Shown: piece by piece, positions 7,656-52,536 of the stretch
How the letters are laid out: each line of letters starts with the position of its first letter
Position numbering within the stretch: position 1 is the first letter of the stretch
Assembly: GCA_017548925.1 (NCBI GenBank)
Contig: JAFYYX010000001.1
Location: 360,852 to 424,851, forward strand
Length of the DNA: 64,000 bases
Source: Bacilli bacterium
Lineage (GTDB): Bacteria > Bacillota_I > Bacilli_A > RF39 > UBA660
Direction of reading: 5' to 3'
Made by a program: the position numbers and the translations under genes
Notes under the pieces: model-generated
Databases searched by the model: none
Told to the model about the DNA's origin: nothing
Seen by the model: only the letters and a program-made list of their open reading frames with translations

Positions 7656-7680
7656 AAACTTTTTAAAAGTTTCTTTTTTA
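7654..7680 (+). terminator. rho-independent terminator
   Basis: Stem gaaactttt pairs with aaaagtttc, followed by T6. Confidence 0.65.
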
Positions 7681-7772
7681 TTTGTAAAAAATGTGTAAAA
7701 AAACATTTACAAACCTAAAACCTATCTATATAATAAAAAACAATTATTTTGATTAAGAGAGGTGATCCCTTT

Positions 7773-10064
7773 ATGAAATATAATCTACCGGCTATATTAC
7801 TTAAAGGATTAATCACCCTTCCTGATCAAGAAATAAAACTTGAAATAAATAATAAATATAGTAAAAAAACAATTGAAACTTCAAGAAGAGAATATAGTGG
7901 AAAAGTTTTAGTTGTATGTCCAAAGAATTATAAAGAAGAAGAACCTGATGTAAGTGATTTACCTAAAGTAGGTGTTGTTGCTGAAGTTATTTCTTCAGTT
8001 AAACTTCCAAATGGAAATGATAGAGTAGTTCTAAAAGGAATCAAAAGGGTTGCTGCTATTAAATATTTTAATTCCAAAAAATCAAGAGACGTTCTTTTAA
8101 GTAAAGTAGAAGACATAGAGCTTCCTAAACTAAATCAAAAAGAAAAAGAAGCATCTAAAAGAAAACTAACAACACTTCTTAGAAAATATATTAAATCAAA
8201 CCCATCAATATCTAATAGTATACTTGCACAAATATCACATGTATCAAACCTAGATACTTTAACTGATATGATTGCTACATTTATGCCATTATCATTTTCA
8301 AAAAAACTTGATCTAATGCAAGAAATAAATTCTAACAAAAGAGCAAAAATCCTAATTGAAGATATCATGGTAGAACTTGAAATTATTGCTCTTGAAAATA
8401 AAATTGATGAAGACTTAAAAAAAGAATTAGATAATCAACAAAAAGAGTTTATTTTAAAAGAAAAGATCAAATTCATTAAAAAAGAACTTGGTGAAAAATC
8501 AGGTAAGGAAGTTGAAATTGATGAGATATTATCTGAACTAGATAATAAAGATTATCCAGAAAATATTAAAAGTAGAATAATTAAAGAAACAAAAAAATAT
8601 GAAATGGTTTCAGAAATTTCACCTGAATCATCAATGATTAAAAACTATATTGATACACTTCTTAATTTACCATGGAATAAAAGTACTCAAGATGAAAAAG
8701 ATATTAAAGAAGTTGAAAAGAAACTAAATTCTACACATTATGGTTTATCAGATATTAAAAAAAGAATTGTTGAATTCTTATATTTAAAAAAGATTAATCC
8801 AGATATAAATACACCAATACTTTGTTTAGTTGGTCCACCAGGAGTAGGTAAATCAACATTTGCATCTTCTATTGCAAGTGCATTAAACAGAAAATTTATT
8901 AAAATTAGTGTTGGTGGATTAAATGATAGTTCTGAACTTTTAGGACATAGAAAAACATATGTTGGTTCTGCTCCAGGAAAAATCATAAATGCATATGCTA
9001 AATGTGAATCAAATAATCCACTTATTTTAATTGATGAAGTTGATAAGATGGTTAAAGACTATAAAGGCGATCCTGCATCAACACTACTAGATATTTTAGA
9101 TATTAATCAGAATAAAAATTTTGTTGATAATTATTTAGAAGAACCATTTGATTTATCAAAAACTTTCTTTATATTAACAGCAAATAATATTTATAATATT
9201 CCACCAGAACTAAGAGATAGACTTGAAATTATTGAACTTAATAGTTATACAGAATTTGATAAGGAAAATATTGCTAAAAAGCATATTTTACCAAGACTAT
9301 ATGATTTATATAAAATAAATAAAAATGATATTACTATAAATAATAAAGAATTAAGAATGATTATTAATTCTTATACTAAAGAACCTGGTGTAAGAGATCT
9401 TGAAAGAATTCTTGATACTTTATATCGTAAAGTAATTATAAATGAAACTAAAAAACCAATAATTATTACTGATAAGTTAATAAATAAATATTTAGGTAAA
9501 CCTGAATATGAACAATTAATTTTTTCTAACTGGAAAGTTGGTTGTGTTAACTGTTTAGCATGCACATATGGTGGTGGAGAAGTTCTTCCAGTTGAAATGT
9601 GTTTTGTAAATAGCGCTTCTCCATCTATTACAGGGTTACTTGGTGAATCCATGAAAGAAAGCATATATGTAATTAATTCATATGTTTCAAGCAATTTAGA
9701 TACATTTAAAATAAATGAAGAAGATTTTAAAAGACCAATGCATATACATTTTCTTGATGGATCTACTCCAAAAGATGGTTCGTCTGCAGGACTTTCTGCT
9801 GTAACAGTAATGCTTAGTTTACTTAAAAATAAAGTTGTTCCAAGAAATGTTGCTATGACAGGTGAAATGACTTTATCAGGAAATGTATTAAAAATTGGCA
9901 TGCTTAAAGAAAAATTAATCGCAGCATACAATGCTAAAATAAAAAAAGTATATATTCCAAAAGCAAATGAAGCAGATTTAGATGATATTCCAGATATTAT
10001 TAAAAATAAGATGGAAATTAAATTGGTTTCTGATTATATTGAAATATATAATGATTTATTTTAA
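7773..10064 (+). CDS. lon: ATP-dependent Lon protease
   Basis: Lon N-terminal domain, Walker A GPPGVGKST, Walker B ILIDEVDKM, sensor and C-terminal proteolytic domain with PKDGSSAG Ser site. Start at MKYNLP after AGAGAGGTGA. Confidence 0.9.
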   Translation: MKYNLPAILLKGLITLPDQEIKLEINNKYSKKTIETSRREYSGKVLVVCPKNYKEEEPDVSDLPKVGVVAEVISSVKLPNGNDRVVLKGIKRVAAIKYFNSKKSRDVLLSKVEDIELPKLNQKEKEASKRKLTTLLRKYIKSNPSISNSILAQISHVSNLDTLTDMIATFMPLSFSKKLDLMQEINSNKRAKILIEDIMVELEIIALENKIDEDLKKELDNQQKEFILKEKIKFIKKELGEKSGKEVEIDEILSELDNKDYPENIKSRIIKETKKYEMVSEISPESSMIKNYIDTLLNLPWNKSTQDEKDIKEVEKKLNSTHYGLSDIKKRIVEFLYLKKINPDINTPILCLVGPPGVGKSTFASSIASALNRKFIKISVGGLNDSSELLGHRKTYVGSAPGKIINAYAKCESNNPLILIDEVDKMVKDYKGDPASTLLDILDINQNKNFVDNYLEEPFDLSKTFFILTANNIYNIPPELRDRLEIIELNSYTEFDKENIAKKHILPRLYDLYKINKNDITINNKELRMIINSYTKEPGVRDLERILDTLYRKVIINETKKPIIITDKLINKYLGKPEYEQLIFSNWKVGCVNCLACTYGGGEVLPVEMCFVNSASPSITGLLGESMKESIYVINSYVSSNLDTFKINEEDFKRPMHIHFLDGSTPKDGSSAGLSAVTVMLSLLKNKVVPRNVAMTGEMTLSGNVLKIGMLKEKLIAAYNAKIKKVYIPKANEADLDDIPDIIKNKMEIKLVSDYIEIYNDLF

Positions 10065-35977: not shown

Positions 35978-36946
35978 ATGAACTATGACAAAATAGGTGA
36001 GTTTATTGCATCTAAAAGAAAAGAAAAAAATATGACCCAAAGTGAACTTGCTAAAAAGTTAGGTGTAACTGATAAAGCAGTATCTAAGTGGGAAAGGGGA
36101 CTAGGTTGTCCTGATGTATCTATATTAGAAATATTATCCAAAGAATTAGATGTATCAATTCTTGAACTATTAAAGGGAAGAGAAATTGAAAATGAGGTTG
36201 TTAAAGTAACTGAAGCAGATGATTACATAAAAGATACATATAAAACAACAAAAAATAAATATAATGAGGAACTTAAAAAGAAGATCAGTTACATTATTGT
36301 TACCATATCAATTTTTATAATTATTATTATTGGAGTATTCAATTTTAATTCATATAAAAGAGTTACTAAAAAGTATGAAATAAATTTTGAAAGTTTCTAT
36401 AATGATGATACATATAAAGGTAAAAATACAAGTTTTAAATATAAAAAAGAAAAATTAAAAGAATACATAAATATTATTGAGAATAATAAAGGAACTCTAA
36501 CAGATGATGAACAGCAAATTATGCTAAGTACTTTAAAAGGTTTTTATAAATATTATGATGAGTGCTGGATATTTAGTATAAAAGATGGAACAAAGATGTC
36601 ATATCAAGAAGCATTTGTTAAACTAGTTAAGTCATTCTATAAATATAGTTGGCCAAGATTCACAGAAATGTTGAAATTATATAAAAATCTTACAAATAAA
36701 GAAACACCAGATGAATTAATGGTAGAAACTTTAAAGAGAAATAATGCTGAATATGAATTTACAGAAACTTATGATAATTTATTTAGAATACAATTATCTT
36801 TTGAAATAGAAGAGTATATTTATAAAATGGCGTTTGGTAATGTAGAAGATAAGCTGCAAAGTGTTGTTGAACGAAATATTGGTTATTTAACACCGTTATT
36901 AACAATGACTGAAGAAATAATGGAGGCTGCTGGTATAAATGAATAA
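35978..36946 (+). CDS. membrane-anchored XRE-family HTH transcriptional regulator with C-terminal extracytoplasmic domain (copy 1)
   Basis: N-terminal Cro/C1 HTH (MTQSELAKKLGVTDKAVSKWERGLGCPDVSILEILSKEL). Single TM (ISYIIVTISIFIIIIIGVF). About 200-aa C-terminal domain ending in LTMTEEIMEAAGINE. Confidence 0.65.
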   Translation: MNYDKIGEFIASKRKEKNMTQSELAKKLGVTDKAVSKWERGLGCPDVSILEILSKELDVSILELLKGREIENEVVKVTEADDYIKDTYKTTKNKYNEELKKKISYIIVTISIFIIIIIGVFNFNSYKRVTKKYEINFESFYNDDTYKGKNTSFKYKKEKLKEYINIIENNKGTLTDDEQQIMLSTLKGFYKYYDECWIFSIKDGTKMSYQEAFVKLVKSFYKYSWPRFTEMLKLYKNLTNKETPDELMVETLKRNNAEYEFTETYDNLFRIQLSFEIEEYIYKMAFGNVEDKLQSVVERNIGYLTPLLTMTEEIMEAAGINE

Positions 36947-37484: not shown

Positions 37485-38441
37485 ATGAACTATGAAAAAA
37501 TAGGTGAGTTCATTGCTAGTAAAAGAAAAGAAAAAGATTTAACGCAAAAAGAACTTGCTAAAAAAATAGGTGTAACTGATAAAGCTGTCTCAAGATGGGA
37601 AAGAGGGCTGGGGTGCCCTGATGTATCTATACTTGAACTTTTATCTAAAGAACTTGATGTATCAATATTAGAACTTTTAAAAGGAAGAAAAATTGAAAAT
37701 GAAGTTATCAAAGTAACTGAAGCAGATGATTATATTAAAGAATCATACAAAGAATCTAAAAATAAATTTAATAAAGAAATTAAAAAAATAGTTAATATTC
37801 TGATAATATTTCTATCATCTTTTTTGGTTTTTATAGCACTATACTTTAATGTTACATCATATCTAAGATTAACTAAAAAACAAGACATGGACTTTACCTA
37901 TGAATATGAAGATTTCAATATAAAATTAGGCCCTGGAACATCATTTTATGATAATAAAGCAAAATTAAAAAAATATATAGATATTATTGAAAACAATCAA
38001 GGAAAATTAACTGATGAAGAGTATACTAGCTTATTAAATTATTTGAAAACTGAGTATGAATTTATATCTAATTCATTTATATTCAAAGTTAATAAACTTA
38101 GATATTATTCATTTAATGATATATTTGTAAAACTTGCAAAAGATTATGATAAATATAATTTTGAACATTTGTATTTTGCTCGAATATATCAAAACTATGT
38201 AGGTGATATTTCTAACACAACATTCTATAGTGGCCTTCGTGGTGTATCAAACGCTGAAAGTGAATTTACTCTCGTGTATAATAGTAATTTCGAAAATTTA
38301 CTTTATTTTAAGATGGAAGATGATACCTTCTTATCACCACTATTTTTATTATTAGATATTGTTTCTAACCATGTATACATGCTTAATCCTATACTTGATA
38401 TGACTGAAGAAATAATGAATGGAGCTGATATCCATGAATAA
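37485..38441 (+). CDS. membrane-anchored XRE-family HTH transcriptional regulator (copy 2, paralogue of 35978..36946)
   Basis: The N-terminal 80 aa are nearly identical to copy 1 (MNYEKIGEFIASKRKEKDLTQKELAKKIGVTDKAVSRWERGLGCPDVSILELLSKELDVSILELLKG). TM, then a diverged C-terminal domain ending in LDMTEEIMNGADIHE. Confidence 0.65.
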   Translation: MNYEKIGEFIASKRKEKDLTQKELAKKIGVTDKAVSRWERGLGCPDVSILELLSKELDVSILELLKGRKIENEVIKVTEADDYIKESYKESKNKFNKEIKKIVNILIIFLSSFLVFIALYFNVTSYLRLTKKQDMDFTYEYEDFNIKLGPGTSFYDNKAKLKKYIDIIENNQGKLTDEEYTSLLNYLKTEYEFISNSFIFKVNKLRYYSFNDIFVKLAKDYDKYNFEHLYFARIYQNYVGDISNTTFYSGLRGVSNAESEFTLVYNSNFENLLYFKMEDDTFLSPLFLLLDIVSNHVYMLNPILDMTEEIMNGADIHE

Positions 38442-38950: not shown

Positions 38951-40843
38951 ATGAAGAAGTTTTTAATATCTATAAGCATTTTTATAATTACATTATTTAT
39001 ATCTATTTCATACACTCATGCCTTAACTGAAGTTGGTGATTTAGCTACTTTAACAGATAGTTTATCACAAGGTGGAGAATTACTGTTAACAAGTGATATC
39101 ACTGCAAACGCAGATTTAAATGTTACAAGTGATGTAACACTTAATCTAAATGGTCATAAACTTAAAATGGGTAGTACAGTATTATATGTAAAAAGTAATA
39201 TGACTATTTATGATGGCACAGAAAATAAAAATGGTTCAATTGAAGGAACAGCTGATTTTGTAATTACTGTTGGTACATCTACTTTAAGTGGTAACTTAAC
39301 AATTGACTCTGGCACTATAAATTGTAAAGGTAAATATGGTATTAAAATTGTACCTAATAGTTCTTTAGTTATAAATGATGGAACAGTAGTTGGTAAACGT
39401 TATCTTATTTATAATGATGGTAACTTTGAATTAAATGGTGGTTTAATTCACGCAAAAACTGGTCTAACAATTCAAAATAGAGCAGGTTCATTATTTACTA
39501 TGAATGGTGGAACTGTAACTACTGATGTTGATTATCAAGCAGTAAATCTTCATGGAAACTGTAAAGCTATAATAAATGGTGGAGAGATTCATGCTCATAA
39601 AGAAGGAACTGATTATCAAGGCAACGGTATAACTCTTTACAAGAATACCGAACTTATCGTAAATGGTGGCTTAATATCAACTTATGGTAATGCTATTATG
39701 GGTAATGGTTCGATTTCCGGTACTAGTGACGGATCTAATGCCAAAATAACTATTACAGGTGGAACTATAATATCATCTAATGGAGCTGCTGTTTATAATC
39801 CACAATATAATGGTGAAACACTAATAACAGGTGGAACTTTAACTGGTACATCAGCTATTGAAGTAAGATCAGGTAAAGTTACTATTGAAGGTGGAACCTT
39901 TAATGGAACTTTTCCATATGTTGTAACCGATTTTGCTAATGGTACTTCAACTGATGGAGCTGCTGTTGCTATAGCTCAGCATGATACAAAAAAACCAATT
40001 GATTTAACTATCAAAGGTGGAAACTTTAATGCTGAAGTTCCAATAAGTTTTACTAATCCACTTAATAATGAAGAAGAATATATTAATCAAATTAACATTA
40101 ATGTTTTTGGTGGAAACTTTAGAACAACAGGAACTACTAATGTTATATCTTTAGATGATAGAGCTATTTTAGCAGGTGGTTCATATAATACTGATGTTTC
40201 TGATTTAGTAATTGATGGCTATGGAGTTAAAGAAGAAAGTGGTATTTATAGTGTCCTTAAACTATATAATATAAACATAGATAAAGATTCTAATGAAGAT
40301 CTTTCAGTAAATGCAAATAAATCGTTTAAAGGTGAACTTATTAAAGTTACTCCAAAAGAAAAATGGGGCTTTGAATCTAAAGTTATATTAAATGATGGAA
40401 CTAAAGATTATGAAATAAATAATAATGAATTTATTATGCCTGAAAATAATGTTACTTTAAAAGTATCATATAGTGTTAGATATAAAATAATATCAGGTGA
40501 TAATCAAATTTATAATAATAGTGATATAACTATAACAACTAATGGAAGCATAGATAAATTAGAAAATATTAAAATTAATGGTGATAGTGTAGATAAAGAT
40601 AGTGTGATTATTGAAAATGGTAGTACTATTTTAACTATTAAAAATGATTACTTAAAATCACTATCTAGCGGAGTATATAATATAACATTTACTTATACAG
40701 ATGGTGATGTTTCAACTAATTTATTGGTTAATAAGGAAACTCCTAAAAATCCAGAAACATTTGATAATATCATCACATATTTTATAGTTTTAGTTTTAAG
40801 TTTATTTTCAACTAGTGTAATGATATATAAAAAGAATAATTAA
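38951..40843 (+). CDS. surface-anchored parallel beta-helix repeat protein (putative adhesin)
   Basis: Signal peptide. About 12 imperfect ~22-aa repeats of the form (I/L)xGGT(I/V)x(S/T)... (for example NGGTVTTDV, NGGEIHAHKEG, TGGTIISSNGAA, EGGTFNGTFP). Ig-like C-terminal region. C-terminal TM (IITYFIVLVLSLFSTSVMIY) with a KKNN tail. Confidence 0.6.
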   Translation: MKKFLISISIFIITLFISISYTHALTEVGDLATLTDSLSQGGELLLTSDITANADLNVTSDVTLNLNGHKLKMGSTVLYVKSNMTIYDGTENKNGSIEGTADFVITVGTSTLSGNLTIDSGTINCKGKYGIKIVPNSSLVINDGTVVGKRYLIYNDGNFELNGGLIHAKTGLTIQNRAGSLFTMNGGTVTTDVDYQAVNLHGNCKAIINGGEIHAHKEGTDYQGNGITLYKNTELIVNGGLISTYGNAIMGNGSISGTSDGSNAKITITGGTIISSNGAAVYNPQYNGETLITGGTLTGTSAIEVRSGKVTIEGGTFNGTFPYVVTDFANGTSTDGAAVAIAQHDTKKPIDLTIKGGNFNAEVPISFTNPLNNEEEYINQININVFGGNFRTTGTTNVISLDDRAILAGGSYNTDVSDLVIDGYGVKEESGIYSVLKLYNINIDKDSNEDLSVNANKSFKGELIKVTPKEKWGFESKVILNDGTKDYEINNNEFIMPENNVTLKVSYSVRYKIISGDNQIYNNSDITITTNGSIDKLENIKINGDSVDKDSVIIENGSTILTIKNDYLKSLSSGVYNITFTYTDGDVSTNLLVNKETPKNPETFDNIITYFIVLVLSLFSTSVMIYKKNN

Positions 40844-40897: not shown

Positions 40898-42802
40898 ATG
40901 AACTATGAAAATATATATCGAAGGCAAAAAGTATTTCTAATAATAACTATTATTTTATTTATATCTATAATTATAAAAATATTTTATATTGAATACATTG
41001 ATTATAAAAAGATAAATAAACTTGCTAATGACTTATGGAATAGAGAACTTCCTATAACAGCTGATAGAGGATTAATACTAGATAGAAATGGTAAAGTTTT
41101 AGCAAGTAATATAACAACAACATCTTTAGTAGTTGTTCCAAAACAAATAAAAGATAAAAAGTATGCAGCTGAAGAAATATCTAAGATACTAAATACTACT
41201 TATAAAAATATATATGGTCACATTACTAAAAATACATCAATAGAAAGAATTCATCCTGAAGGAAGAAGACTTTCTTATGAAATAGCTGATAAAATAAATG
41301 CTTTAAATATAGACGGGGTATATCTTTTAAAAGAAGGTAAAAGATATTATCCATATGGTAATGTCTTATCACATGTTTTAGGTTATGTTGGAATTGATAA
41401 TCAAGGTTTATCAGGTATTGAATCTATGTATGAAAAATATTTAAAAGGAACCGATGGCTCCATTAAATATTTATCAGATGGAAAAGGCCAAAGACTTAAT
41501 TTAAGCGAAAGTTATAATGAACCAGAAAGTGGTATGAACGTTCTTTTAACTATTGATTTAGATTTACAACTTGCTATTGAAAATGAACTAGATATAGCTA
41601 TGAGTAAATATAATCCAGAAAATGTTTTAATACTTGCAATGAATCCAACATCTGGAGAAATTTTGGGTATGGCATCAAGACCTTCTTTTGATAGCAACTA
41701 TTATAAAAATTATAGCACTGAAACTATAAATAGAAATTTACCTATTTGGAAAACGTATGAACCAGGATCAACTTTTAAGATAATTACTTATGCTGCTGCA
41801 ATAGAAGAAAAAGTAGTAAACATATTTGAAGATACTTATTATGATAGTGGATCAATAAAAGTTTCTGGTTCAACACTACACTGCTGGAAACATGAAGGTC
41901 ATGGACTTCAAACATATTTAGAAGTAATTCAAAATTCATGTAACCCAGGTTTTGTTACCCTCGGGTTAAAACTAGGTAAAGAAAAATTAATGAAATATAT
42001 TCATAATTTTGGTTTTGGCAAAAAAACTGGTATTGATTTAAATGGTGAAGCCAAAGGTATTTTGTTTAAAGAAGAACAAATGAAAGAATTAGAACTTGCA
42101 ACAACAGCATTTGGTCAAGGTATATCTGTTACTCCAATTCAGCAGGTAAAAGCTGTTAGTGCAGCTATTAATGGTGGTAACTTATATACTCCTTATATAG
42201 TAAAAGGTGTTGAAGACTCTAGTACTCATGAATTTATTTATGAAAATAAAAAGCACTTAGAGAAAAAAGTAATAAGTGAAGAAACAAGTAAACTAGTTAG
42301 ATATGCACTTGAAACTGTTGTTGCAAAGGGAACTGGTCATAATGCATATTTAGAAGGCTATAAAATAGGTGGTAAAACTGGAACAGCTCAAAAGGTAGAT
42401 AATGGTGCATACATGCAAGGAAACTATATACTATCTTTTATAGGTTTTTTACCAGCAGATGATCCTAAACTTGTTTTATATGTTGCAATTGATCATCCAC
42501 ATAATGTTACACAGTATGGTGGTACAGTTGCAGCACCAATTGCTAAAAATATATTTAAAAGTGCTGTAAGTATTTTAAATATTAAAAAAAGTAAAGATGT
42601 TATTCCAAAAGAATATACATGGCTTGATGAAAAATATTATTTAGTGCCAGATGTAACTAACCAAGATGTTAAAGAAGCAAAAAAATTACTTAAAAATTTT
42701 AAAGTAAAATATATTGGAAAAGGAAATACTGTTATAAAACAAACACCAAAAGCAAATACTATGACTAAAGAGTTAGGTGATGTAGTACTTTACCTTAATT
42801 AA
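40898..42802 (+). CDS. class B penicillin-binding protein with C-terminal PASTA domain (SpoVD/PBP2B-like)
   Basis: N-terminal TM, dimerisation domain, transpeptidase motifs STFK, SCN and KTGT (GGKTGTAQ), and a single C-terminal PASTA. Confidence 0.8.
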   Translation: MNYENIYRRQKVFLIITIILFISIIIKIFYIEYIDYKKINKLANDLWNRELPITADRGLILDRNGKVLASNITTTSLVVVPKQIKDKKYAAEEISKILNTTYKNIYGHITKNTSIERIHPEGRRLSYEIADKINALNIDGVYLLKEGKRYYPYGNVLSHVLGYVGIDNQGLSGIESMYEKYLKGTDGSIKYLSDGKGQRLNLSESYNEPESGMNVLLTIDLDLQLAIENELDIAMSKYNPENVLILAMNPTSGEILGMASRPSFDSNYYKNYSTETINRNLPIWKTYEPGSTFKIITYAAAIEEKVVNIFEDTYYDSGSIKVSGSTLHCWKHEGHGLQTYLEVIQNSCNPGFVTLGLKLGKEKLMKYIHNFGFGKKTGIDLNGEAKGILFKEEQMKELELATTAFGQGISVTPIQQVKAVSAAINGGNLYTPYIVKGVEDSSTHEFIYENKKHLEKKVISEETSKLVRYALETVVAKGTGHNAYLEGYKIGGKTGTAQKVDNGAYMQGNYILSFIGFLPADDPKLVLYVAIDHPHNVTQYGGTVAAPIAKNIFKSAVSILNIKKSKDVIPKEYTWLDEKYYLVPDVTNQDVKEAKKLLKNFKVKYIGKGNTVIKQTPKANTMTKELGDVVLYLN

Positions 42803-42888
42803 TGTCAATAATTGTAAAATGTTTTTTTGATATTTAAATAAAAGTAGTATTTATTGTATAATATTGTAATAAAGAAAGAGGTGTATTT

Positions 42889-43881
42889 ATGCTACTTTTA
42901 GCTAAAGCTGCACTTGCAATGATGCTTGGATTTGGTTTATCCATCATTGCTGGACTTATTATAGTTCCTCTTTTAAAAAAATATAAAATAGGTCAACAAG
43001 TTAGTAGAACTGTTGGAGAAAGACATATGGCAAAACAAGGTACTCCAACAATGGGTGGTTTAATATTTATTATTCCAACACTACTTGCAATGTTATTTTT
43101 ATATTTAAGAGGTAGTATTTCTTATAGTCATAATATGTTAATACTTATATTTGTATTTATATCATATGCCATTTTAGGTGGTATAGATGATATACTCAAA
43201 GTTAAGTTTAAAAATAATAAAGGTTTATCAATAAGTACAAAATTCTTACTTCAAATGGTTATAGCTCTAGTATTTTTCTATATCTTTATGAAAAATGGTG
43301 GAGAACCAACACTAGCTATTTCATTTTTACATTTAGAAATACCTATGGGGTGGACATTTGGTTTATTTATATTATTTTTACTTGTTGGTTCATCAAATGC
43401 TGTTAATATAACAGATGGTTGTGATGGTTTAGCCGGAGGCTTATCTGCTATTGCATTTGTTGCATTTGGTATTATTGCATGGAATACATCGTGGATGGAA
43501 GGATACCAAGAAGTAGGTGTATTTTCATTCTGTTTAGTAGGATCTTTACTAGGATTTTTAATATTTAATACTCATCCAGCAAGAGTATTTATGGGAGATT
43601 TAGGATCTCTTGCTCTTGGTGGAGCACTTGCAACAATAGCTGTTATTACAAGACACGAAATATCACTTGCATTAATTGGTGGAATATTTGTTATTGAAAC
43701 ATTATCTTCATTAATTCAAATTATAGCTATTACAAAGTTTCATAAAAGAATATTCTTAAAAGCACCATTACATCACCACTTTGAAGCACTTGGTTGGGAT
43801 GAAAGAGATATTGTTAAAATGTTTTGGACAATAGGTCTTCTTCTTGCAATGGCTGCAATTACTTACGGGGTTTGGTTATAA
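42889..43881 (+). CDS. mraY: phospho-N-acetylmuramoyl-pentapeptide transferase
   Basis: MraY hallmark blocks GTPTMGG, ILGGIDD, NAVNITDGCDGLAGG, PARVFMGDLGSLALGG and APLHHHFE. Confidence 0.9.
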   Translation: MLLLAKAALAMMLGFGLSIIAGLIIVPLLKKYKIGQQVSRTVGERHMAKQGTPTMGGLIFIIPTLLAMLFLYLRGSISYSHNMLILIFVFISYAILGGIDDILKVKFKNNKGLSISTKFLLQMVIALVFFYIFMKNGGEPTLAISFLHLEIPMGWTFGLFILFLLVGSSNAVNITDGCDGLAGGLSAIAFVAFGIIAWNTSWMEGYQEVGVFSFCLVGSLLGFLIFNTHPARVFMGDLGSLALGGALATIAVITRHEISLALIGGIFVIETLSSLIQIIAITKFHKRIFLKAPLHHHFEALGWDERDIVKMFWTIGLLLAMAAITYGVWL

Positions 43882-43893
43882 AGATGTATCCTC

Positions 43894-44006
43894 AAATGTC
43901 AGATATTTTAATTTGAAAAAAGGATATATTTGAATAAAATAATTTGATAATAATGAAATGGAAGCAATTATGAATAAAAAGTTCGTAATTAAAATATCTG
44001 ACATTT
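43894..44006. repeat. 16-bp perfect inverted repeat (AAATGTCAGATATTTT / AAAATATCTGACATTT) separated by 81 nt
   Basis: Arms at 43894-43909 and 43991-44006, in the 297-bp non-coding gap between mraY and ftsW. Confidence 0.6.
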
Positions 44007-44032
44007 CAAAATGCATCAATATAACTTATTAG

Positions 44033-44058
44033 GCATCACTTAAAGTGATGTTTTTTTG
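44033..44058 (+). terminator. rho-independent terminator
   Basis: Stem catcactt pairs with aagtgatg, followed by T7. Confidence 0.65.
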
Positions 44059-44178
44059 TTAATTTAAATTAACTGAAAAGTTATTATAACGATAAAAAAA
44101 TAACTTTCAATACTTTCGACAAAACATGTCAAAATATTCGCTTAATTATTAAATAAAATTAAATATGGTGATGTATTT

Positions 44179-45258
44179 TTGAAAAAAGAAATAGTAATTG
44201 TAAAGTTATTATCTACTATATTAATTTTATTTGGACTACTAATAATCTACTCATCTAGTTATGTTTGGTCCAACTATAAATTTAATAATGGATATCATTA
44301 TGTTTTATATCAATTTATATTTTTATTAATAAGTTTATTTATATCTAAAGTAGTTATAAAAATAGATTTAAATATTATTAAAAAAAATATAAATAAACTA
44401 TTACTAATTGGAATAATTTTATTACTGCTAGTTATAATTCCTGGTGTAGGAGTAGTTAGAAATGGATCGAGATCTTGGTTTAGTATTGGTCCACTTAGTA
44501 TGCAGCCAAGTGAATTTATTAAAATAATTTTAATAATATTTACTGCAAAATATTTGGAAAAATACCATTACAAAATAAATAAATTAAAAGATAATTTATT
44601 TCCATTAATTATTATTCTTGGTGCAGTAATACTGCTAATAATGCTAGAACCTGACTTTGGAAGCTCCATGATTATAATTTTAACTATTTTATCTATGGTT
44701 TTTATATCGGGTTTAAAATATCGATTCTTTAGTTATATAGGGTTACTTGGAATATTAGGAATTACTTTTATAATAATTATTGCACCATATAGGATGGCAA
44801 GAATAATATCTTTTATAAACCCATGGAAAGATCCTCTTGGATCAGGATACCAAATTATCCAATCACTTTATGCTGTTGCACCAGGTGGTTTATTTGGCCA
44901 TGGAATATTTTCTTCTATTCAAAAATATTTTTATTTACCAGAACCACAAACTGATTTTATATTTGCTATTTTCTGTGAGGAATTTGGTTTTATAATATCA
45001 GTTCTCGTAATATTAATGTTTATTATTCTTTTTTATAATATATATAAAATAAGTGCAAAACAAAGTGATTTATTTAAAAAGTTTTTATCTTTTGGAATAC
45101 TATCTAGTTTAGTTGTGCAAACAGTAATGAATTTATGTGTTGTTGTTGGGTTAGTACCTGTAACAGGAGTAACACTTCCATTTTTTAGTTATGGTGGATC
45201 AAGTTTACTTATATCTATATTAGAAATATCTTTAATTATTAATATTTCTAAAAGTTGA
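44179..45258 (+). CDS. ftsW: SEDS-family peptidoglycan glycosyltransferase FtsW/SpoVE
   Basis: Ten TM helices. SEDS blocks SWFSIGPLSMQPSEFIKI and LPEPQTDFIFAIFCEEFGF, and the TLPFFSYGGSS motif. TTG start and weak RBS, so the start is uncertain. Confidence 0.75.
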   Translation: MKKEIVIVKLLSTILILFGLLIIYSSSYVWSNYKFNNGYHYVLYQFIFLLISLFISKVVIKIDLNIIKKNINKLLLIGIILLLLVIIPGVGVVRNGSRSWFSIGPLSMQPSEFIKIILIIFTAKYLEKYHYKINKLKDNLFPLIIILGAVILLIMLEPDFGSSMIIILTILSMVFISGLKYRFFSYIGLLGILGITFIIIIAPYRMARIISFINPWKDPLGSGYQIIQSLYAVAPGGLFGHGIFSSIQKYFYLPEPQTDFIFAIFCEEFGFIISVLVILMFIILFYNIYKISAKQSDLFKKFLSFGILSSLVVQTVMNLCVVVGLVPVTGVTLPFFSYGGSSLLISILEISLIINISKS

Positions 45259-45297
45259 ATTTTAATGTTTTTTTAGGTATATCAATAGAACGTTTGT

Positions 45298-45326
45298 TTG
45301 ACTTAAAGTAGCAAAAATGCTATAAT
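45298..45326 (+). promoter_or_regulatory. near-consensus sigma-A promoter: TTGACT - 17 nt - TGcTATAAT
   Basis: TTGACT (45298-45303), a 17-nt spacer, and an extended -10 TGCTATAAT (45318-45326), 28 nt upstream of ORF 45354. Confidence 0.6.
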
Positions 45327-45353
45327 ACTTGGCGACAAGTAAGGGGAATTTAT

Positions 45354-46445
45354 ATGGAAAGAAATGAAGTATTAGTTGCCAAAAATACTGATGAGTTAAT
45401 CTCTTACACTAAAACACAACCGAGTGCAAATGAACTTTTTATAAGTTCGGTTACAAATCTAGATAAAATAGATTCTTTTCATAATCTCCAAAATCTTAAA
45501 ATATCCGCTTTTAAAGCTATTGAATTAAATGATGATGCAATAATTGATGGATCAAATATTAAAAAACTTAAAGCATTAAAGACACTATATATTGAAAACG
45601 ATGATCACATTGAAGAGTTATCTTTACCATGCACAATGAATCTAGATACTTTATTTATATCTTCATGTCACATACTTAAATATATTGATAACTTATTTTA
45701 TCAAAATAGATTAAGGACTTTAGTTATATATGATGTACCTAATCTTGATAAAAGTTTTTATAGTAAGTTAATAAGTTTTTTGGATAATTCAAACTTAGAT
45801 AGAGTTATTCTTGATATAAACACTTATACATTATTTACCGATAAAGAACTTGAAAAATTAAAGGAATATCATGTACTATTTGCTGAAAAAATAGGTATAA
45901 AAGATAACTATATTTTTACTCCAAAAATGATGGAAGATTTTCATAGTAAAGTTCTTGAAATTTATAAAAAGGTTCATGATGAATATAAAGATTTATATAA
46001 AATCTTATATGAATATTATGATTATGTAAGAAATACTCATTATGATGAAGAATCCCTTGCTAAAAGACAAAAGTTTACTCTTGAAGGTGGTAAATTTTAT
46101 AAATATGCAAATAGATATAAATCTATTAATTCTTCATATAAAGCTCTAATGAAAAATAATGCTGTTTGTGAAGGTTATGTAAACTTACTTAGATATTTAT
46201 ATAATCTTGAAAATGTTGATTTATATCCAGTATTTTGTAACTATAAAGAATCATCACATGTAGCTGGAAAAGCCTTTATTGATGGTGTTGAAGTATTCTT
46301 TGATCCAGAATTAGATCATAGATTTATGAATCACAATAACTTTATGATAAGTAAAGATGAATTTCAAAGAAATCATGATATCTTATTTTATCGCGATAAT
46401 TTTGATATAATAATAGAAGTAAAGAATAAAGTGAGAAGTAGATAG
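45354..46445 (+). CDS. leucine-rich-repeat protein fused to transglutaminase-like cysteine-protease domain
   Basis: N-terminal LRR-like units (LQNLKISAFKAIEL, LKALKTLYIEND, NLDTLFISSCHILKYIDNL, RLRTLVIYDVPNLD). C-terminal TGase-like core with Cys (NAVCEGYVNLLRYL), His (SSHVAGKAFIDGVEV) and Asp (FFDPELD). No signal peptide. Confidence 0.55.
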   Translation: MERNEVLVAKNTDELISYTKTQPSANELFISSVTNLDKIDSFHNLQNLKISAFKAIELNDDAIIDGSNIKKLKALKTLYIENDDHIEELSLPCTMNLDTLFISSCHILKYIDNLFYQNRLRTLVIYDVPNLDKSFYSKLISFLDNSNLDRVILDINTYTLFTDKELEKLKEYHVLFAEKIGIKDNYIFTPKMMEDFHSKVLEIYKKVHDEYKDLYKILYEYYDYVRNTHYDEESLAKRQKFTLEGGKFYKYANRYKSINSSYKALMKNNAVCEGYVNLLRYLYNLENVDLYPVFCNYKESSHVAGKAFIDGVEVFFDPELDHRFMNHNNFMISKDEFQRNHDILFYRDNFDIIIEVKNKVRSR

Positions 46446-46447
46446 TT

Positions 46448-48052
46448 ATGAAAAGAATATTACAAGAATACTTACAAAATAATCATGGTATTGGAGATAT
46501 TATATTAAATGATACTAGCAAGATTATATCTATACTAGATGATTTAAAAATAGATGCTTTATATAAAAGTAACTTTCATGGTTTATATCACTCTCAAAAG
46601 GTATGTTTATATGCATATATAATTGGTACATGCATGGGTTTAGATGAATCTGAAATGAAAATTATTTTAGATGCAGCTAAGTATCATGATATTGGAAGAG
46701 AAAACGATAATGAAGATACAACTCATGGTTATGCAGCTACTTTAAGAATAGATAAAGTAGTAAATTATTCTAATACAGATGATATATATTATTTAAAAGC
46801 AATTATTGATGCGCATGCAGTTCCTGATAAAGAAATGGATTTAATTTTTAGTAACTGGAATGAAAGAAAACATGATGATGATATTGCTTTAAAAAGGGAA
46901 AATGCTAAAGATCTTGATTTCGAAAAATTCAAAAAATTATGTTCAATATTAAAAGATGCTGATGCCCTTGATAGATTTAGATTTAAAAACTGTCCTGCAG
47001 AACTTGATGAAAACTATTTAAGAACTGATGCAGCTAAAAATAAAAAACTAATAGAAGCAGCTAAAATTATTAATGATCACTACAGGAAAGTTGAAGCTGA
47101 AGAGCAATATAAAAATGCTCAAGGTAAATATAATAAATTCACTTTTGATAAACAAATATGTTATCACAGTGTAGGGTTTGATTTTTTCAAAGCACTAAGT
47201 GTATTAGAACATGGAATATTATCATATTACAGTGCTGAAAAAAATAACATAAAATTATCAAGAAATTTTAATGGAAATAATTCTGACTTTTGGATATCTG
47301 TTGTTGATGCTAACCAACTATTTTCTCAACCAAAAGCCTTTGATAAATATGTAAAAAATGGAATAAGTTTCCTATGTTATGTTGATCAGCTTGTTCCAGG
47401 AGTTAGTAGATCTAAAGATAATGGTTCTTTAGAACCAAGAAATTCTGAATATTGTGATGAAAAATTTGTTTTTGATAAAATTCCACTTGAACATATACAA
47501 TTTATGTTAATTCCTAAAAAATATATGAATACAAGTATTACTGAATTGGAATATTTATACTGTAATTCAAACTATGAAACAATAAAAAATAATGTTAATA
47601 GATATTTAGGTGAGATAGAGCAGTACTGTGATATTAAACTAAATAGAAATAATATTAATAGAGTTTTAAATGAATTATTCCAAGTTCAAACAAATTATAA
47701 TAGTGCTTATTATCATTCTGAATTTGATGAAAAGATGTATTATCTTAAGATTGATCATATGAAAGCTGCACTTAATTTATATATTCAAGAATCAATGCAA
47801 ATTGGTTTTTGTGAACTAATGGAAAAAACAATTGATGAAAAAATCACATTAAAAGAAGTAGTTGAATTTATTCTAAAAAGAAATGGTATTGAATATACTG
47901 AAGTTCAAAGTAATAGTGATAGTGAGAGTTTTTCATCAGCAGATGATATTTTATCATTTGATGATAAAGGTGCATATATGTTAAGACTATCAACCTTTGA
48001 TTTAAATAAAACTATAAGTCTTTCAGATTTAAATCAAACAAGAGGTATTTAA
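46448..48052 (+). CDS. HD-domain phosphohydrolase-like protein with ~350-aa C-terminal domain of unknown function
   Basis: N-terminal H..HD signature (GLYHSQKVCLYAYIIG...AAKYHDIGREND...DADALDRF). Begins 3 nt after the upstream stop. Cytoplasmic. Confidence 0.55.
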   Translation: MKRILQEYLQNNHGIGDIILNDTSKIISILDDLKIDALYKSNFHGLYHSQKVCLYAYIIGTCMGLDESEMKIILDAAKYHDIGRENDNEDTTHGYAATLRIDKVVNYSNTDDIYYLKAIIDAHAVPDKEMDLIFSNWNERKHDDDIALKRENAKDLDFEKFKKLCSILKDADALDRFRFKNCPAELDENYLRTDAAKNKKLIEAAKIINDHYRKVEAEEQYKNAQGKYNKFTFDKQICYHSVGFDFFKALSVLEHGILSYYSAEKNNIKLSRNFNGNNSDFWISVVDANQLFSQPKAFDKYVKNGISFLCYVDQLVPGVSRSKDNGSLEPRNSEYCDEKFVFDKIPLEHIQFMLIPKKYMNTSITELEYLYCNSNYETIKNNVNRYLGEIEQYCDIKLNRNNINRVLNELFQVQTNYNSAYYHSEFDEKMYYLKIDHMKAALNLYIQESMQIGFCELMEKTIDEKITLKEVVEFILKRNGIEYTEVQSNSDSESFSSADDILSFDDKGAYMLRLSTFDLNKTISLSDLNQTRGI

Positions 48053-48080
48053 AAACCAAGATTAAATCTTGGTTTTTTCT
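48052..48080 (+). terminator. rho-independent terminator
   Basis: Stem aaaccaagatt pairs with aatcttggttt, followed by T6. It is followed by TTGATA. Confidence 0.7.
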
Positions 48081-48172
48081 TGATATAAATTAATGTAAAG
48101 TTATTTATAACTTAACATTAATTAATAATTTTATAGTATAATTTAATATAACAAGAAGGAGGAACTTTATTT

Positions 48173-49246
48173 ATGAAAGTAATAGTTTCTGCTGGAGGTA
48201 CAGGAGGACATATTTATCCTGCACTTGCAATAATTGATATGTTAAAAAAAGAATATAAAGATTTGGATATTTTATATATAGGTACTCATAATAGAATGGA
48301 AAAAGATATTATCCCTAAAATGGGTATTAAATATGAAACTTTAAAAATATATGGGGTTAGTAAAAGAATATATCTTAATTTAAAAAACTGTTTTTTAATT
48401 AATGAAGCATTTCATAAATGCCATAAAATAATAAAAGAATTTAAACCTGATTTAGTTATTGGTGCTGGAGGTTACGTAACATATCCGGTAATAAAAACAG
48501 CACAAAGAATGGGTATTAAAACTTTTATTCATGAACAAAATAGTTTTTCTGGTAAAACTAATGTAGCATTAGGTAAAAAAGCGACTTTAGTTGGTGTTTC
48601 ATTTGAAAACTCAGTAAAAGATTATAAAAAATGTAAGGGTAAAGTATTCATAATGGGTAATCCATGTGGAAAAAGAGCTCTTGATATTAAACCAATTAAA
48701 AAATCTGACATAGGGTTTAAAGATAATAAACCACTTGTTGTTGCAGTTGCTGGATCACTTGGTAGCGTAACAATAAACAAATCATTTAAAGAAGTGTTAA
48801 CTTCTTTAAATGATAAAAATTATCAGTTTTTATATATAACTGGTCAAAAATATTATGATGAATTTATTAAGGGTTTAACTTTACCAGATAATGTTAAAGT
48901 AGTACCATATTTTGAAAATTTATCAGGACTACTTAAAAACACAGATGCATTAATTTCAAGATCTGGTGCAAGTACTATGAGTGAAGTAATAGCTTTAAAA
49001 GTACCAACTATCTTTATTCCATCACCATATGTAGCAAATAACCATCAGTACTATAATGCAATTGATTTAGTTAATAAAAAAGCTGCTCTTATGATTGAAG
49101 AAAAAGATTTTAGTAAAGATTTATTACTAAGTAAAATTGATGAGTTATTAAATAATAGTAAAGAAATAAAAAATAACTTAGAAAGTATTTCAGTTGTAGA
49201 TTCTGAAAAAGTATTTATTAGTGAAATAAAGGGGATTTTTAAATGA
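48173..49246 (+). CDS. murG: UDP-GlcNAc:lipid I N-acetylglucosaminyltransferase
   Basis: GGTGGH N-terminal motif (VSAGGTGGHIYPALA), GT28 C-terminal domain. AGGAGG RBS. Confidence 0.85.
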   Translation: MKVIVSAGGTGGHIYPALAIIDMLKKEYKDLDILYIGTHNRMEKDIIPKMGIKYETLKIYGVSKRIYLNLKNCFLINEAFHKCHKIIKEFKPDLVIGAGGYVTYPVIKTAQRMGIKTFIHEQNSFSGKTNVALGKKATLVGVSFENSVKDYKKCKGKVFIMGNPCGKRALDIKPIKKSDIGFKDNKPLVVAVAGSLGSVTINKSFKEVLTSLNDKNYQFLYITGQKYYDEFIKGLTLPDNVKVVPYFENLSGLLKNTDALISRSGASTMSEVIALKVPTIFIPSPYVANNHQYYNAIDLVNKKAALMIEEKDFSKDLLLSKIDELLNNSKEIKNNLESISVVDSEKVFISEIKGIFK

Positions 49247-50130
49247 AAGATGAATTAAGTAAATTTGGAAAAGTAAAAGAAAATGTCGATTTAAAAAATT
49301 ATAATACTTATAAAGTATCAGTTAATGCTAAATATTTAGTAGAAGTAAAAAATGTAGATTCATTAAATGAATTAATTAAATATTTAAAGAAAAATAAAAT
49401 TAAATATTTAATTTTAGGTAATGGATCTAATGTTGTTTTACCTGAAAAAGATTTAGATGGCGTAATTATAAGACTTAATGGTTTAAATAAAATAGAAATA
49501 GATGATGATGAAGTATATGTTGAAGCCGGAGTAATGCTACCTAAACTTGTTAATGAATCAGTAAGTAACTGTTTAGCAGGACTAGAGTGGGCATCTGGTA
49601 TACCAGGTACCGTTGGTGGTGCTGTTGTTGGTAATGCTGGTGCATATTTATCAGATATTTTTTCATTTATTATTGATATTGATGTTTTAGAAAATGGAGA
49701 AGTTAAAACAATTAAGAAAAGTGATGTAACTTATAGTTATAGACATACATCATTTAAAGATAATAAAGACATTATTGTTTTAGCAGTTAGATTAAAACTT
49801 AATAAAGGTAATGCTGATGAATCTCAAGAAATAATGAAAAACAGATTAGAAAGAAGAATTAAATCACAACCACTTAATTATCCAAATGCTGGTAGTGTAT
49901 TTAGAAATCCTGAAGGTGACTATGCTGGTAGATTAATTGAAGAATGTGGACTTAAAGGAAAACGTATTGGTGGCGCAATGGTTTCTGAAAAACATGCAAA
50001 CTTTATAATTAACTATGATAATGCAACAGCAAAAGATATAAGAGACTTAATAAAATTAGTACATGATGAAGTACTTAAAAAGGAAAAAGTAGATTTAATA
50101 ATTGAACAAGAATTAATAGATTGGAGGTAA
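49243..50130 (+). CDS. murB: UDP-N-acetylenolpyruvoylglucosamine reductase
   Basis: FAD-binding N-terminus (ILGNGSNVVL). MurB C-terminal RSQPLNYPNAGSVFRNP and the GGAMVSEKHANFIIN motif. Confidence 0.85.
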   Translation: MKDELSKFGKVKENVDLKNYNTYKVSVNAKYLVEVKNVDSLNELIKYLKKNKIKYLILGNGSNVVLPEKDLDGVIIRLNGLNKIEIDDDEVYVEAGVMLPKLVNESVSNCLAGLEWASGIPGTVGGAVVGNAGAYLSDIFSFIIDIDVLENGEVKTIKKSDVTYSYRHTSFKDNKDIIVLAVRLKLNKGNADESQEIMKNRLERRIKSQPLNYPNAGSVFRNPEGDYAGRLIEECGLKGKRIGGAMVSEKHANFIINYDNATAKDIRDLIKLVHDEVLKKEKVDLIIEQELIDWR

Positions 50131-50136
50131 GTAAAT

Positions 50137-50880
50137 ATGGAAAAGAAAAAATCTAAACGTAAAATAAATATTATTGCATTAATAGTTATTTTACTTTTCT
50201 TGTATTTGGTTTTTTCTTTTATTTATTATGTAATGACACTTCCAATTAAAAATATTTATATAGAAGGAAATACCTATGTTTCTGATGTTGAAATAATTGA
50301 AACGGCTAAAATAAAAAATTATCCTTCACTTATAAAGATAAGTAGAAGAAAAGTTAAGAAAAATCTTCGTAAAAATGAATTTATTAATAGTGTAACTATT
50401 AAGAAAAAATTAAATGGTACTATAAAAATAATAGTTGATGAAAGTAAACCTCTTTTTTATAATCGAACAAATAAAAAATTAGTTTTACTTAATGGAAAAG
50501 AAGTTGATAATAGTTCTTTAAATGATAAAGTACCATCACTTATAAATATCGTTCCAAACGATATTTATAAGAGCTTAATCAAAGCTTTTGAAAAAGTAGA
50601 TTATAATGTAATAACTCAAATAAGTGAAATAGAATATGATCCAGATATTATAAATGGAAAAACCATAGATCCAGATAGATTCTATTTAAGAATGGTTGAT
50701 GGAAATAGTGTTTATATTAATCCAGTAAATATTAAAAGACTTAATAACTATTTTAGTGTTTATGATAGACTTCCTGATGGCGTAAAAGGAACTTTGTATT
50801 TTGATTCAAATAGTAATAATAACATGTTTAAAATGTATGGATCAAAAGAAGCAAGCGAGGTTTTACCAAGTGAAAACTAA
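50137..50880 (+). CDS. divIB: cell-division protein DivIB/FtsQ
   Basis: N-terminal TM. POTRA-like region (IKNIYIEGNTYVSDVEIIE...FINSVTIKKKLNGTIKIIVDE) followed by a beta domain. Position after murB in the dcw order. Confidence 0.6.
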   Translation: MEKKKSKRKINIIALIVILLFLYLVFSFIYYVMTLPIKNIYIEGNTYVSDVEIIETAKIKNYPSLIKISRRKVKKNLRKNEFINSVTIKKKLNGTIKIIVDESKPLFYNRTNKKLVLLNGKEVDNSSLNDKVPSLINIVPNDIYKSLIKAFEKVDYNVITQISEIEYDPDIINGKTIDPDRFYLRMVDGNSVYINPVNIKRLNNYFSVYDRLPDGVKGTLYFDSNSNNNMFKMYGSKEASEVLPSEN

Positions 50881-51564: not shown

Positions 51565-52536
51565 ATGCCAAATTATATAATTGAAAAATTCAAGGAACAT
51601 TGTCATGATATTGTTGAAGGTAAATATGAAAAAATAGAATATGGTCAACAAATACTTACAAACATAGTATTTAAAAATGTAGATAAGAATTTTGCTAATG
51701 ATTTTTCAAATGCAGAATTAGAATTTGTTAATTCAGACTGTGTTTGTGATTATGTTAAAGAACTTATGACTAAATGTTTAAAAGCTGATGAAGATTTTAA
51801 CGAAGAAGAATCAGAAGCTATAAAATTACTTCAAAGTGAAAAAACATTTAATAAAATGACAGCAGATGAAATTGAAAAACTAGTTGAAGAACTTGGTAAT
51901 TCAAGAGGTTTTTATTATATACCTGGACTTTATCAAAGATACTTTTTCACAATAAAAGGAAAAGGTGTTAATGAATATTTATTAACAAAAGTAGATAAAT
52001 ATGATATAGCAAGAGAATTTTTACAAACTTCTGGTTTATCAACACGTGCTGAATATTATGCAGGCCTTGGAGTTAGATACTGGGATTTAGAACCAAATCA
52101 TTTAAAAAGTATATATTATAAATTCTTAAGATTAAATCCAGAAGCTGCTGTAGAGTTTTATAAAATGGTTATATTAATGAAAACTCTAGGTGCAACAGAA
52201 TTTATTGATACTCTATACAGATTTGCAAGAAATGATTTTAAAACAGAAGGTTTATTTATAGCTGATAATAATGTAGTATCTGATAGTGCTACACATACTG
52301 GTATGGCAATTGGATTTTTTGCAGCACTTGGAAATAATCAATCAATAGATGATCAAGTACGTTTATCTAATAATATGAAATATTCGTTCTTCAGTGATAT
52401 TTCTGATTCGTTAAGCAAAATTGCTCCTGAATTATTTGAAAAACATTTAAAGGAATTTAGAAAAAGAGAAATGAATAATTATTATAATTATGATTTAATT
52501 ATAGATAATAGTAAATCTAACAGAAAACCAAGATAA
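51565..52536 (+). CDS. hypothetical cytoplasmic protein (323 aa)
   Basis: GGGAGAGG RBS. No TM and no motif recognised. Confidence 0.5.
   Translation: MPNYIIEKFKEHCHDIVEGKYEKIEYGQQILTNIVFKNVDKNFANDFSNAELEFVNSDCVCDYVKELMTKCLKADEDFNEEESEAIKLLQSEKTFNKMTADEIEKLVEELGNSRGFYYIPGLYQRYFFTIKGKGVNEYLLTKVDKYDIAREFLQTSGLSTRAEYYAGLGVRYWDLEPNHLKSIYYKFLRLNPEAAVEFYKMVILMKTLGATEFIDTLYRFARNDFKTEGLFIADNNVVSDSATHTGMAIGFFAALGNNQSIDDQVRLSNNMKYSFFSDISDSLSKIAPELFEKHLKEFRKREMNNYYNYDLIIDNSKSNRKPR

Follow-up and report, generated by a model that had tools for sequence, protein, structure and literature searches.

A conserved operon in uncultured Bacilli couples a leucine-rich repeat, transglutaminase-like protein to a predicted HD phosphohydrolase with a probable DarT-like ADP-ribosyltransferase domain

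Two adjacent genes, here named A and B, were identified between ftsW (44179-45258) and murG (48173-49246) in a stretch of 64,000 nucleotides (nt) from contig JAFYYX010000001.1 of a Bacilli bacterium (assembly GCA_017548925.1); "the window" refers to this whole stretch. The gene order is PBP2B/SpoVD-mraY-ftsW-A-B-murG-murB-divIB, where PBP stands for penicillin-binding protein, and the identities of the flanking genes were backed by the Pfam labels of the relative L006, which is 90 % identical. The open reading frames (ORFs) of A and B are separated by 2 nt. An earlier reading of the window, made from the sequence alone, had placed two genes at this point of the division and cell wall (dcw) cluster, and both the ORFs and their flanks were confirmed. 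Neither product has an N-terminal hydrophobic stretch and both are predicted to be cytoplasmic. The features of the locus, together with the gene contexts of the pair in other genomes, are listed in Table 1.

The sequence-only reading had also proposed a TTGACT-17-TGcTATAAT promoter in front of gene A. This site, with 11 of 12 matches to the consensus plus the TG extension, was the top site in a scan of 8 kb (42500-50500). Promoter-like sites as a class were not enriched in the AT-rich DNA scanned (61 found, 69 expected), and the promoter is considered credible because it is conserved across loci, not because of its scan score. The sequence TTGAC[TC]-17-TGnTATAAT is kept in L006 and L011, 27-29 nt before the start of A, and similar sites were found in 31 of 54 loci; in many of the more distant loci a comparable extended -10 promoter is placed 22-31 nt ahead of A. 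The sequence AAGGGGAA, which covers the region of the putative ribosome binding site (RBS), precedes A in L006 as in the window. An intrinsic terminator closes the operon, as had been claimed, and consists of a 12-bp hairpin, AAAACCAAGAUU-AAA-UCUUGGUUUU, and a run of six U residues. Its predicted fold has an energy of -11.8 kcal/mol (z = -4.78), and none of 200 shuffled sequences was as stable; the consensus scan overlooked it because the hairpin has only 2 G-C pairs. No RNA families were detected in a Rfam search of the whole window. In L006 the region between ftsW and the A promoter (6988-7990) contains a gene with an ORF6N domain (phage antirepressor-type, E 2e-35) followed by approximately 680 nt of broken frames, and the window has 95 nt at this place.

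Table 1. Features of the A-B locus in the window and contexts of the A-B pair at other loci (aa, amino acids; x, other gene; LRR, leucine-rich repeat; ART, ADP-ribosyltransferase; AF2, AlphaFold2)
Feature	Locus	Position	Strand	Description
A-B promoter	window	45298-45326	+	sigma-70-type; -35 TTGACT 45298-45303, 17-nt spacer, extended -10 TGcTATAAT 45318-45326
RBS GGGGA	window	45343-45347	+	6 nt before gene A ATG; read from sequence
Gene A	window	45354-46445	+	363 aa; predicted LRR-transglutaminase-like cysteine peptidase or transferase
Gene A, LRR domain	window	45426-45893	+	approx. aa 25-180; from profile, Foldseek and AF2
Gene A, transglutaminase-like core	window	45921-46388	+	approx. aa 190-345; Cys272 46167-46169, His302 46257-46259, Asp317 46302-46304
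Gene B	window	46448-48052	+	534 aa; predicted HD phosphohydrolase, probable DarT-like ART domain, helical tail
Gene B, HD domain	window	46565-47092	+	approx. aa 40-215
Gene B, probable DarT-like ART core	window	47141-47527	+	approx. aa 232-360; His240 47165-47167, Ser284, Glu338 47459-47461
Gene B, helical C-terminal tail	window	47528-48049	+	aa 361-534; poorly conserved; AF2 secondary structure
Intrinsic terminator	window	48051-48080	+	hairpin 48051-48077, then U-run
Context mutS-AB-x-nusB-xseAB	L001, L008-L010			
Context greA-AB-(membrane protein)-murE-murF-mraY	L002-L005, L013-L015			membrane protein of 121 aa
Context infC-rpmI-rplT-x-AB-(ClpC-like ATPase)-murE-murF-mraY	L019, L031 and others			
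Other contexts				AB-murE directly; whiA-AB; isolated between opposite-strand genes
ClpC/ClpB-type ATPase after A-B	L012, L016, L019-L021, L024-L026, L031, L034, L036, L039, L056, L062, L067			

A direct Pfam scan of the product of gene A gave LRR matches below threshold (E 0.03-0.3) and no match to Transglut_core (PF01841), so its domain assignments rest on profiles, homologues and predicted structure. A profile constructed from 29 homologues matched LRR proteins of the PDB over several repeat stretches at E-values of 1e-15 to 1e-12, including the Roco LRR (1.4e-15) and internalin A (3.6e-14), and matched the transglutaminase-like chain 9crn at E 1.6e-3. In the AF2 model (pLDDT 88.5) the LRR part is built of alternating beta/alpha repeats, and Foldseek related this part to SDS22, SHOC2 and Leptospira LRR proteins. 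The transglutaminase part of the model was matched to 9crn (2.7e-5), 4xz7 (7e-4), 3isr and vasohibins, among which are cysteine proteases. Homologues at approximately 30 % identity (P0019-P0027) carry PF12799, PF01841 and PF04473; they and the A paralogue at L067 match PF01841 at 3e-9. The residues C272, H302 and D317, contained in the motifs CEGYVNLLRYL, SSHVAGKAF and FFDPELD, respectively, were invariant in all 29 homologues, which span 25-90 % identity. Conservation of these residues was the check that had been suggested for the earlier assignment of A as an LRR fusion to a transglutaminase-like Cys-His-Asp core, and that assignment stands. Profiles and the predicted model together show gene A to encode an internalin-type LRR domain, a solenoid of tandem LxxLxLxxN-type repeats of the protein-binding kind, joined to a predicted transglutaminase (papain-like) fold with an intact Cys-His-Asp site. 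Locus L067 (1107-3893 and 7678-9801) is unusual in that two ORFs take the place of B, which may reflect a frameshift or a pseudogene, and that a second A-like protein of 708 aa, with LRR, Transglut_core and approximately 300 extra C-terminal residues, is encoded 4 kb downstream.

The N-terminal half of B was examined in the same manner. Residues H44, H48, H80-D81, R84, D170, D172, D175 and R178 were invariant in 45 B sequences, and H93 and H123 were at least 90 % conserved. In the direct scan of the window B against Pfam and NCBIfam no HD match was obtained (HDIG was sub-threshold, E 0.014); PF01966 is carried by most B homologues. The AF2 model of B (pLDDT 88) gave structural matches to HD, phosphodiesterase (PDE) and SidE-PDE proteins. 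The HD signature named in the sequence-only reading was thus found with every metal ligand in place, and these comparisons show the N-terminal half of B to be a predicted metal-dependent HD phosphohydrolase. Two further proteins, P0125 (812 aa) and P0136 (599 aa), join an exotoxin-type ART domain (PF03496) to the same HD subfamily (AAKYHDxG...LKDADALDRxR...YLR), which lies at their C-terminus, and these fusions are an independent hint that the HD subfamily of B is linked to ARTs. P0125 has in addition a long repetitive N-terminal region. HD-only paralogues of approximately 250 aa belonging to this subfamily also occur, with neither an A gene nor an ART-like domain (L071-L085, e.g. 9797-10564 in L077). 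A split form of B, in which an HD-only paralogue would stand beside a stand-alone DarT-like gene, was looked for and not seen, except for one weak case in L076, where the gene next to the HD-only paralogue (10560-11381) matches the first ART-like motif weakly (E 7e-4).

For the C-terminal half of B, in which no recognisable motif had been reported, a probable relationship to the DarT-type ADP-ribosyltransferases was found. Only two residues, His240 and Glu338, were invariant in 48 B C-terminal domains, and Gly243, Gly256, Ser259, Gly276, Asn278, Ser284, Phe308 and Asp337 were near-invariant. When 177,635 PDB sequences were searched with the C-terminal profile, the second- and third-ranking matches were E. 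coli DarT1 (8baq) and a protein in which DarT is fused to a macro domain (7omu); their E-values of about 0.2 alone are not significant. Both matches cover the helix after strand 1, and DarT1 adds a second, collinear segment past the catalytic Glu. The profile was then aligned by hhalign to that of DarT1, the gene for which was taken from a viral contig and served as a positive control (Pfam DarT match at 6.8e-24). The alignment extended over 150 columns (P 2e-4, probability 46 %) and paired His240 with His17, Ser284 with S63 and Glu338 with Glu152, the catalytic residue that was changed to Ala in the crystallised protein; the B strand WISVV was paired with CLSVS. Its score of 34.2 compares with a maximum of 20.5 among 150 column-shuffled decoys. 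The DarT profile used here was shallow, as the scans of viral contigs yielded just DarT1 and relatives at approximately 80 % identity; no match was found when a DarT1 fragment was searched against plasmids by tblastn.

A link to the Pfam family came from stand-alone proteins. A word-indexed search with the C-terminal profile returned HD-fused proteins only, and the stand-alone relatives needed an exhaustive HMMER profile search, in which 1.84 billion representatives yielded 293 relatives at E <= 1e-3. About 70 of the best 150 among these 293 are fused as in B, and well over 50 are stand-alone proteins, 250-300 aa in length, in which the domain is represented in full. The latter are homologous to the B domain (hhalign E 1.4e-44), and the alignment runs through the helical tail, which they share. 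Pfam DarT (PF14487) was matched by 7 of 41 stand-alone relatives, one of them above the gathering score (4.6e-5; 23.7 bits, cutoff 22.5). The C-terminal part of another HD protein, P0120, was considered as a further copy of the domain and rejected (P 0.26). Two stand-alone relatives of 250-270 aa lie inside housekeeping operons (L098, 6001-6795; L100, 6001-6759): in one case the gene extends into the start of uvrC, and mutS is located 3 kb further downstream; in the other it shares its first nucleotides with the end of trmK, within a dnaG-rpoD-trmK operon, and the next gene is a small one with an XRE-type helix-turn-helix (HTH).

Because the PDB ranks, the hhalign score relative to the decoys and the stand-alone link to Pfam DarT agree when taken together, the C-terminal domain of B probably has a DarT-clan ART fold. 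Several observations weigh against this assignment. In the stand-alone relatives the match to Pfam DarT is limited to 30-40 residues that surround the catalytic Glu; neither the window protein nor any of the 48 C-terminal domains gave a direct match to PF14487 (E <= 10 for the 48 domains); the hhalign probability against DarT1 is the modest value given above; and the structural matches listed for B are to HD and PDE proteins, with the HD domain dominating and no ART among them. Scans of the 48 isolated domains against Pfam and PADLOC likewise gave no match. Such failures of direct family models, the restriction of the listed structural matches to HD and PDE proteins and the existence of HD-only paralogues without A are in line with a domain that is not an active ART, B being instead a phosphohydrolase of nucleotides or signal nucleotides whose second domain is regulatory and specific to the lineage, and A an unrelated cytoplasmic peptidase that happens to be co-transcribed. 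This explanation is improbable: the sole invariant residues, H240 and E338, correspond in DarT1 to the His at the NAD site and to the catalytic Glu, the decoys never attain the observed score, a transitive link to Pfam DarT exists, and the association of A with B is too strict, as described below.

The distribution of the pair was determined from one genome per GTDB species, which gave 393 relatives of B. Wherever B was full-length and sequence upstream of it was available (59 species-level loci plus metagenome contigs), an A match was located directly upstream on the same strand, the only exception being L061, and the gap between the two genes ranged from -62 to +9 nt. The exception (7199-9079) is a 627-aa B-like protein with no A upstream, in which the C-terminal part of the profile matches twice. 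One protein of 852 aa, P0079, is an A-B fusion. The identity matrices of A and B were correlated (r = 0.85, 59 loci). Chance co-transcription is disfavoured because the adjacency is strict and a fusion protein exists, and the earlier view that the two genes belong together is upheld. The carriers are uncultured Bacilli, mostly gut metagenome-assembled genomes, deposited as Bacilli, 'Tenericutes', 'Mollicutes' or Erysipelotrichaceae. Judged from these comparisons, the A-B operon is old and has been inherited as a unit within a lineage of uncultured Bacilli of low G+C.

The genomic setting bears on the origin of the operon. The G+C content of A-B (0.23-0.27) equals that of its flanks, and the pair is orthologous and syntenic in relatives of the same genus, with the order ftsW-AB-murG in the window, L006 and L011. 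Elsewhere it occupies other housekeeping contexts (Table 1), and AB-(ftsL-like or clpC-like)-murE-murF-mraY was found in at least 19 loci; in at least 22 of 59 species-level loci mur or dcw genes lie within a few genes of A-B. Neither a defence island nor a mobile element was observed in the Pfam-labelled neighbourhoods (window plus 59 loci), apart from the ORF6N remnant of L006. On account of the synteny in relatives, the native G+C and the varied housekeeping contexts, the location of A-B between ftsW and murG is best described as an old, positionally variable association with mur and dcw genes and not as a recent insertion, and the description of the pair as inserted into the cluster is weakened. 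The contrary case that the sequence-only reading had considered, a universal ftsW-murG location with a known housekeeping role, was found in part: the pair is syntenic and co-inherited in relatives, and its position varies and it has no known role, unlike a core gene of the dcw cluster. A ClpC/ClpB-type double-AAA ATPase of 705-735 aa is encoded directly after A-B in approximately 15 loci (e.g. 11571-13694 in L031), usually followed by murE-murF-mraY. The idea that A-B replaces mcsA-mcsB upstream of clpC was dropped, as there is no clpC nearby in the window and only one clade shows the adjacency.

Comparison to known systems was made with DarTG first. DarT is a toxin and phage-defence family whose known partners are Macro or NADAR domains (PMC9503650). 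Like DarT, the probable ART domain of B has a His in strand 1 followed by a SILxxG[IL][LM]S helix and an hhSV strand, and its putative catalytic Glu is part of an E-x-hV-x-x-x-IP strand; in B, too, this domain is joined to a second domain that may be able to act on ADP-ribose adducts, and a writer and an eraser in one chain have a precedent in the DarT-macro fusion 7omu. The differences are considerable. An HD phosphohydrolase stands N-terminal to the ART in place of Macro or NADAR, and no Macro or NADAR antitoxin was present among the Pfam-labelled neighbours of A-B; DarTG contains nothing equivalent to the obligatory LRR-transglutaminase-like partner; the ART core is reduced in length, with 98 residues from H to E versus 135 in DarT1; the setting is housekeeping and co-inherited; and the Pfam DarT and PADLOC models do not match B. 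Searched with PADLOC-DB 2.0, A gave no match and B only a Cas3g HD match at E 0.034. The proteins P0125 and P0136 resemble B in joining the same HD subfamily to an ART and differ in having an R-S-E ART of exotoxin type, placed N-terminal to the HD domain. With the transglutaminase-like peptidases (PF01841/DUF553; 9crn, 4xz7, 3isr; vasohibins) A shares the papain-like fold and Cys-His-Asp triad, and it differs in its N-terminal internalin-type LRR, its constant pairing with the HD-ART protein and its scores below the Pfam thresholds. The domains of A-B belong to known superfamilies, and their combination is unmodelled in the libraries used (Pfam, NCBIfam and PADLOC). In the literature searched, an HD domain with a DarT-like ART and an LRR-transglutaminase-like partner was not found, nor was anything on TglA/9crn or on DarT together with transglutaminase.

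A resident function is suggested by the chromosomal fixation of the operon and by its own strong promoter. On this basis A-B may be a chromosomally fixed, NAD+-dependent ADP-ribosylation module, a proposal drawn from sequence comparison and analogy that is favoured here at somewhat less than even confidence. The two genes would form one translationally coupled operon driven by that promoter. The ART domain of B would use NAD+ as the donor of ADP-ribose for a macromolecular acceptor, which, if DarT is taken as the model, is most likely a base of single-stranded DNA or RNA. The HD domain of the same polypeptide would trim or remove the adduct through attack on a phosphodiester or pyrophosphate bond, taking the place of Macro or NADAR, and A may bind B or its target through the LRRs and exert control by cleavage, deamidation or cross-linking. 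The module would serve resident physiology, e.g. the control of replication, repair or growth, and would not be a mobile accessory element. Two points count against the proposal. The roles given to HD and A are drawn by analogy, and in L011 the identities of A (50 %) and B (46 %) fall below those of the flanks (66-92 %), a faster divergence that is as compatible with a conflict system as with a housekeeping function.

The same divergence, and the layout of the operon, may be read differently. Antitoxins are usually encoded upstream of the toxin gene and overlap it, and LRRs are typical sensor domains. The overlap of A with B, the upstream position of A and the strong own promoter correspond to a toxin-antitoxin operon layout, and the LRR of A is sensor-like. 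A-B could therefore be a fixed toxin-antitoxin or abortive-infection module in which B is a DarT-like toxin and A restrains it, or senses a phage protein via the LRRs and releases B by proteolysis. The toxin and phage-defence nature of the DarT family, the ORF6N remnant adjoining the operon in L006 and the small XRE-type HTH gene following a stand-alone relative are consistent with such a role. It is nevertheless unlikely, since PADLOC models match neither A, B nor the 48 C-terminal domains, a Macro, NADAR or ARG antitoxin is not present, A has no DNA-binding domain for autoregulation, and the pair is found in conserved housekeeping positions with native G+C and co-inheritance, and not in variable islands. 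Of the defence or signalling function put forward in the sequence-only reading, what persists is accordingly a doubtful toxin-antitoxin or defence role, kept by the toxin nature of DarT; the housekeeping neighbours and the PADLOC results speak against it.

Another possibility is a SidE-like two-step protein modification, in which a protein side chain would be ADP-ribosylated by the ART, after which the HD domain would cleave the pyrophosphate to leave a phosphoribosyl mark or a link to a second protein, A providing LRR-based substrate recognition and a reversing or priming peptidase. The fusion of the same HD subfamily to protein-targeting R-S-E ARTs in P0125 and P0136, and the combination of LRR and Cys-peptidase in A, would suit a protein substrate. 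This mechanism appears quite improbable. The Legionella SidE proteins are phosphoribosyl-ubiquitin ligases with a mono-ADP-ribosyltransferase (mART) and a PDE domain (SdeD/DupA being PDE-only), in an order that is the reverse of that in B. The SidE PDE is not known to use an HD-type metal site, whereas the HD metal ligands of B are intact, and the ART of B is nearest to DarT, a nucleic-acid modifier, and not to the R-S-E mART of SidE. B has neither the R-S-E mART nor the metal-independent PDE with a His-His-Glu site that define the SidE type. A-B furthermore has no deubiquitinase domain, there is no ubiquitin in the biology of the host, and neither protein of the pair is predicted to be a secreted effector.

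To return to the resident ADP-ribosylation module, a more specific version of it is speculative and rather unlikely to hold in full. B would be the first DarT-clan nucleic-acid ART with a fused HD eraser or processor, and with A as an LRR-guided cysteine peptidase would constitute a resident writer, eraser and regulator circuit, whose marks on DNA or RNA would govern replication, repair or division throughout a lineage of uncultured gut Bacilli; alternatively, it would be a SidE-like ART-then-phosphodiesterase outside Legionella that leaves phosphoribosyl adducts. If this were true, an HD-fused ART would be a new way to remove or process adducts, beside the Macro and NADAR reversal of DarT-type toxin and defence chemistry, and ADP-ribose would be a predicted target of the HD subfamily, which in other proteins is joined to exotoxin-type ARTs. 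The comparison supplies a probable fold and putative catalytic residues for a domain family of approximately 290 clusters that is unannotated in Pfam, NCBIfam and PADLOC. The operon also offers a two-gene handle on gut-associated, small-genome Bacilli that are known almost only from metagenomes, and it lies beside essential cell-wall and DNA-repair genes.

Other features of the window were noted. Genes murD, murE and murF are not present in the 64 kb, the dcw cluster included. Upstream of the PBP gene an ORF of 630 aa (38951-40843) has a signal-like N-terminus, a repetitive middle rich in Gly, Asn and Thr, and a C-terminal hydrophobic anchor; a weak CBM_X2 match was its only family match. This putative surface protein is regarded as a strain-specific insertion because the HTH_3, 154-aa and PBP genes are contiguous in L006. 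Two tandem paralogues with 50 % identity (35978-36946 and 37485-38441) each start with an XRE-type HTH_3 domain, to which a hydrophobic segment and then a long C-terminal part are attached, and resemble membrane-anchored regulators. The gap between mraY and ftsW (43882-44178) comprises 300 nt of non-coding DNA with a terminator-like hairpin at 44031-44053; at this junction in L011 two reverse-strand ORFs of 444 and 176 aa are inserted. An ORF of 323 aa without a Pfam match (51565-52536) is located between queH and rpsB. The queH-like ORF is listed with a TTG start that gives it an overlap of 80 nt with divIB (50801-50880), and the gene call in L006 (205 aa) suggests a start further downstream.

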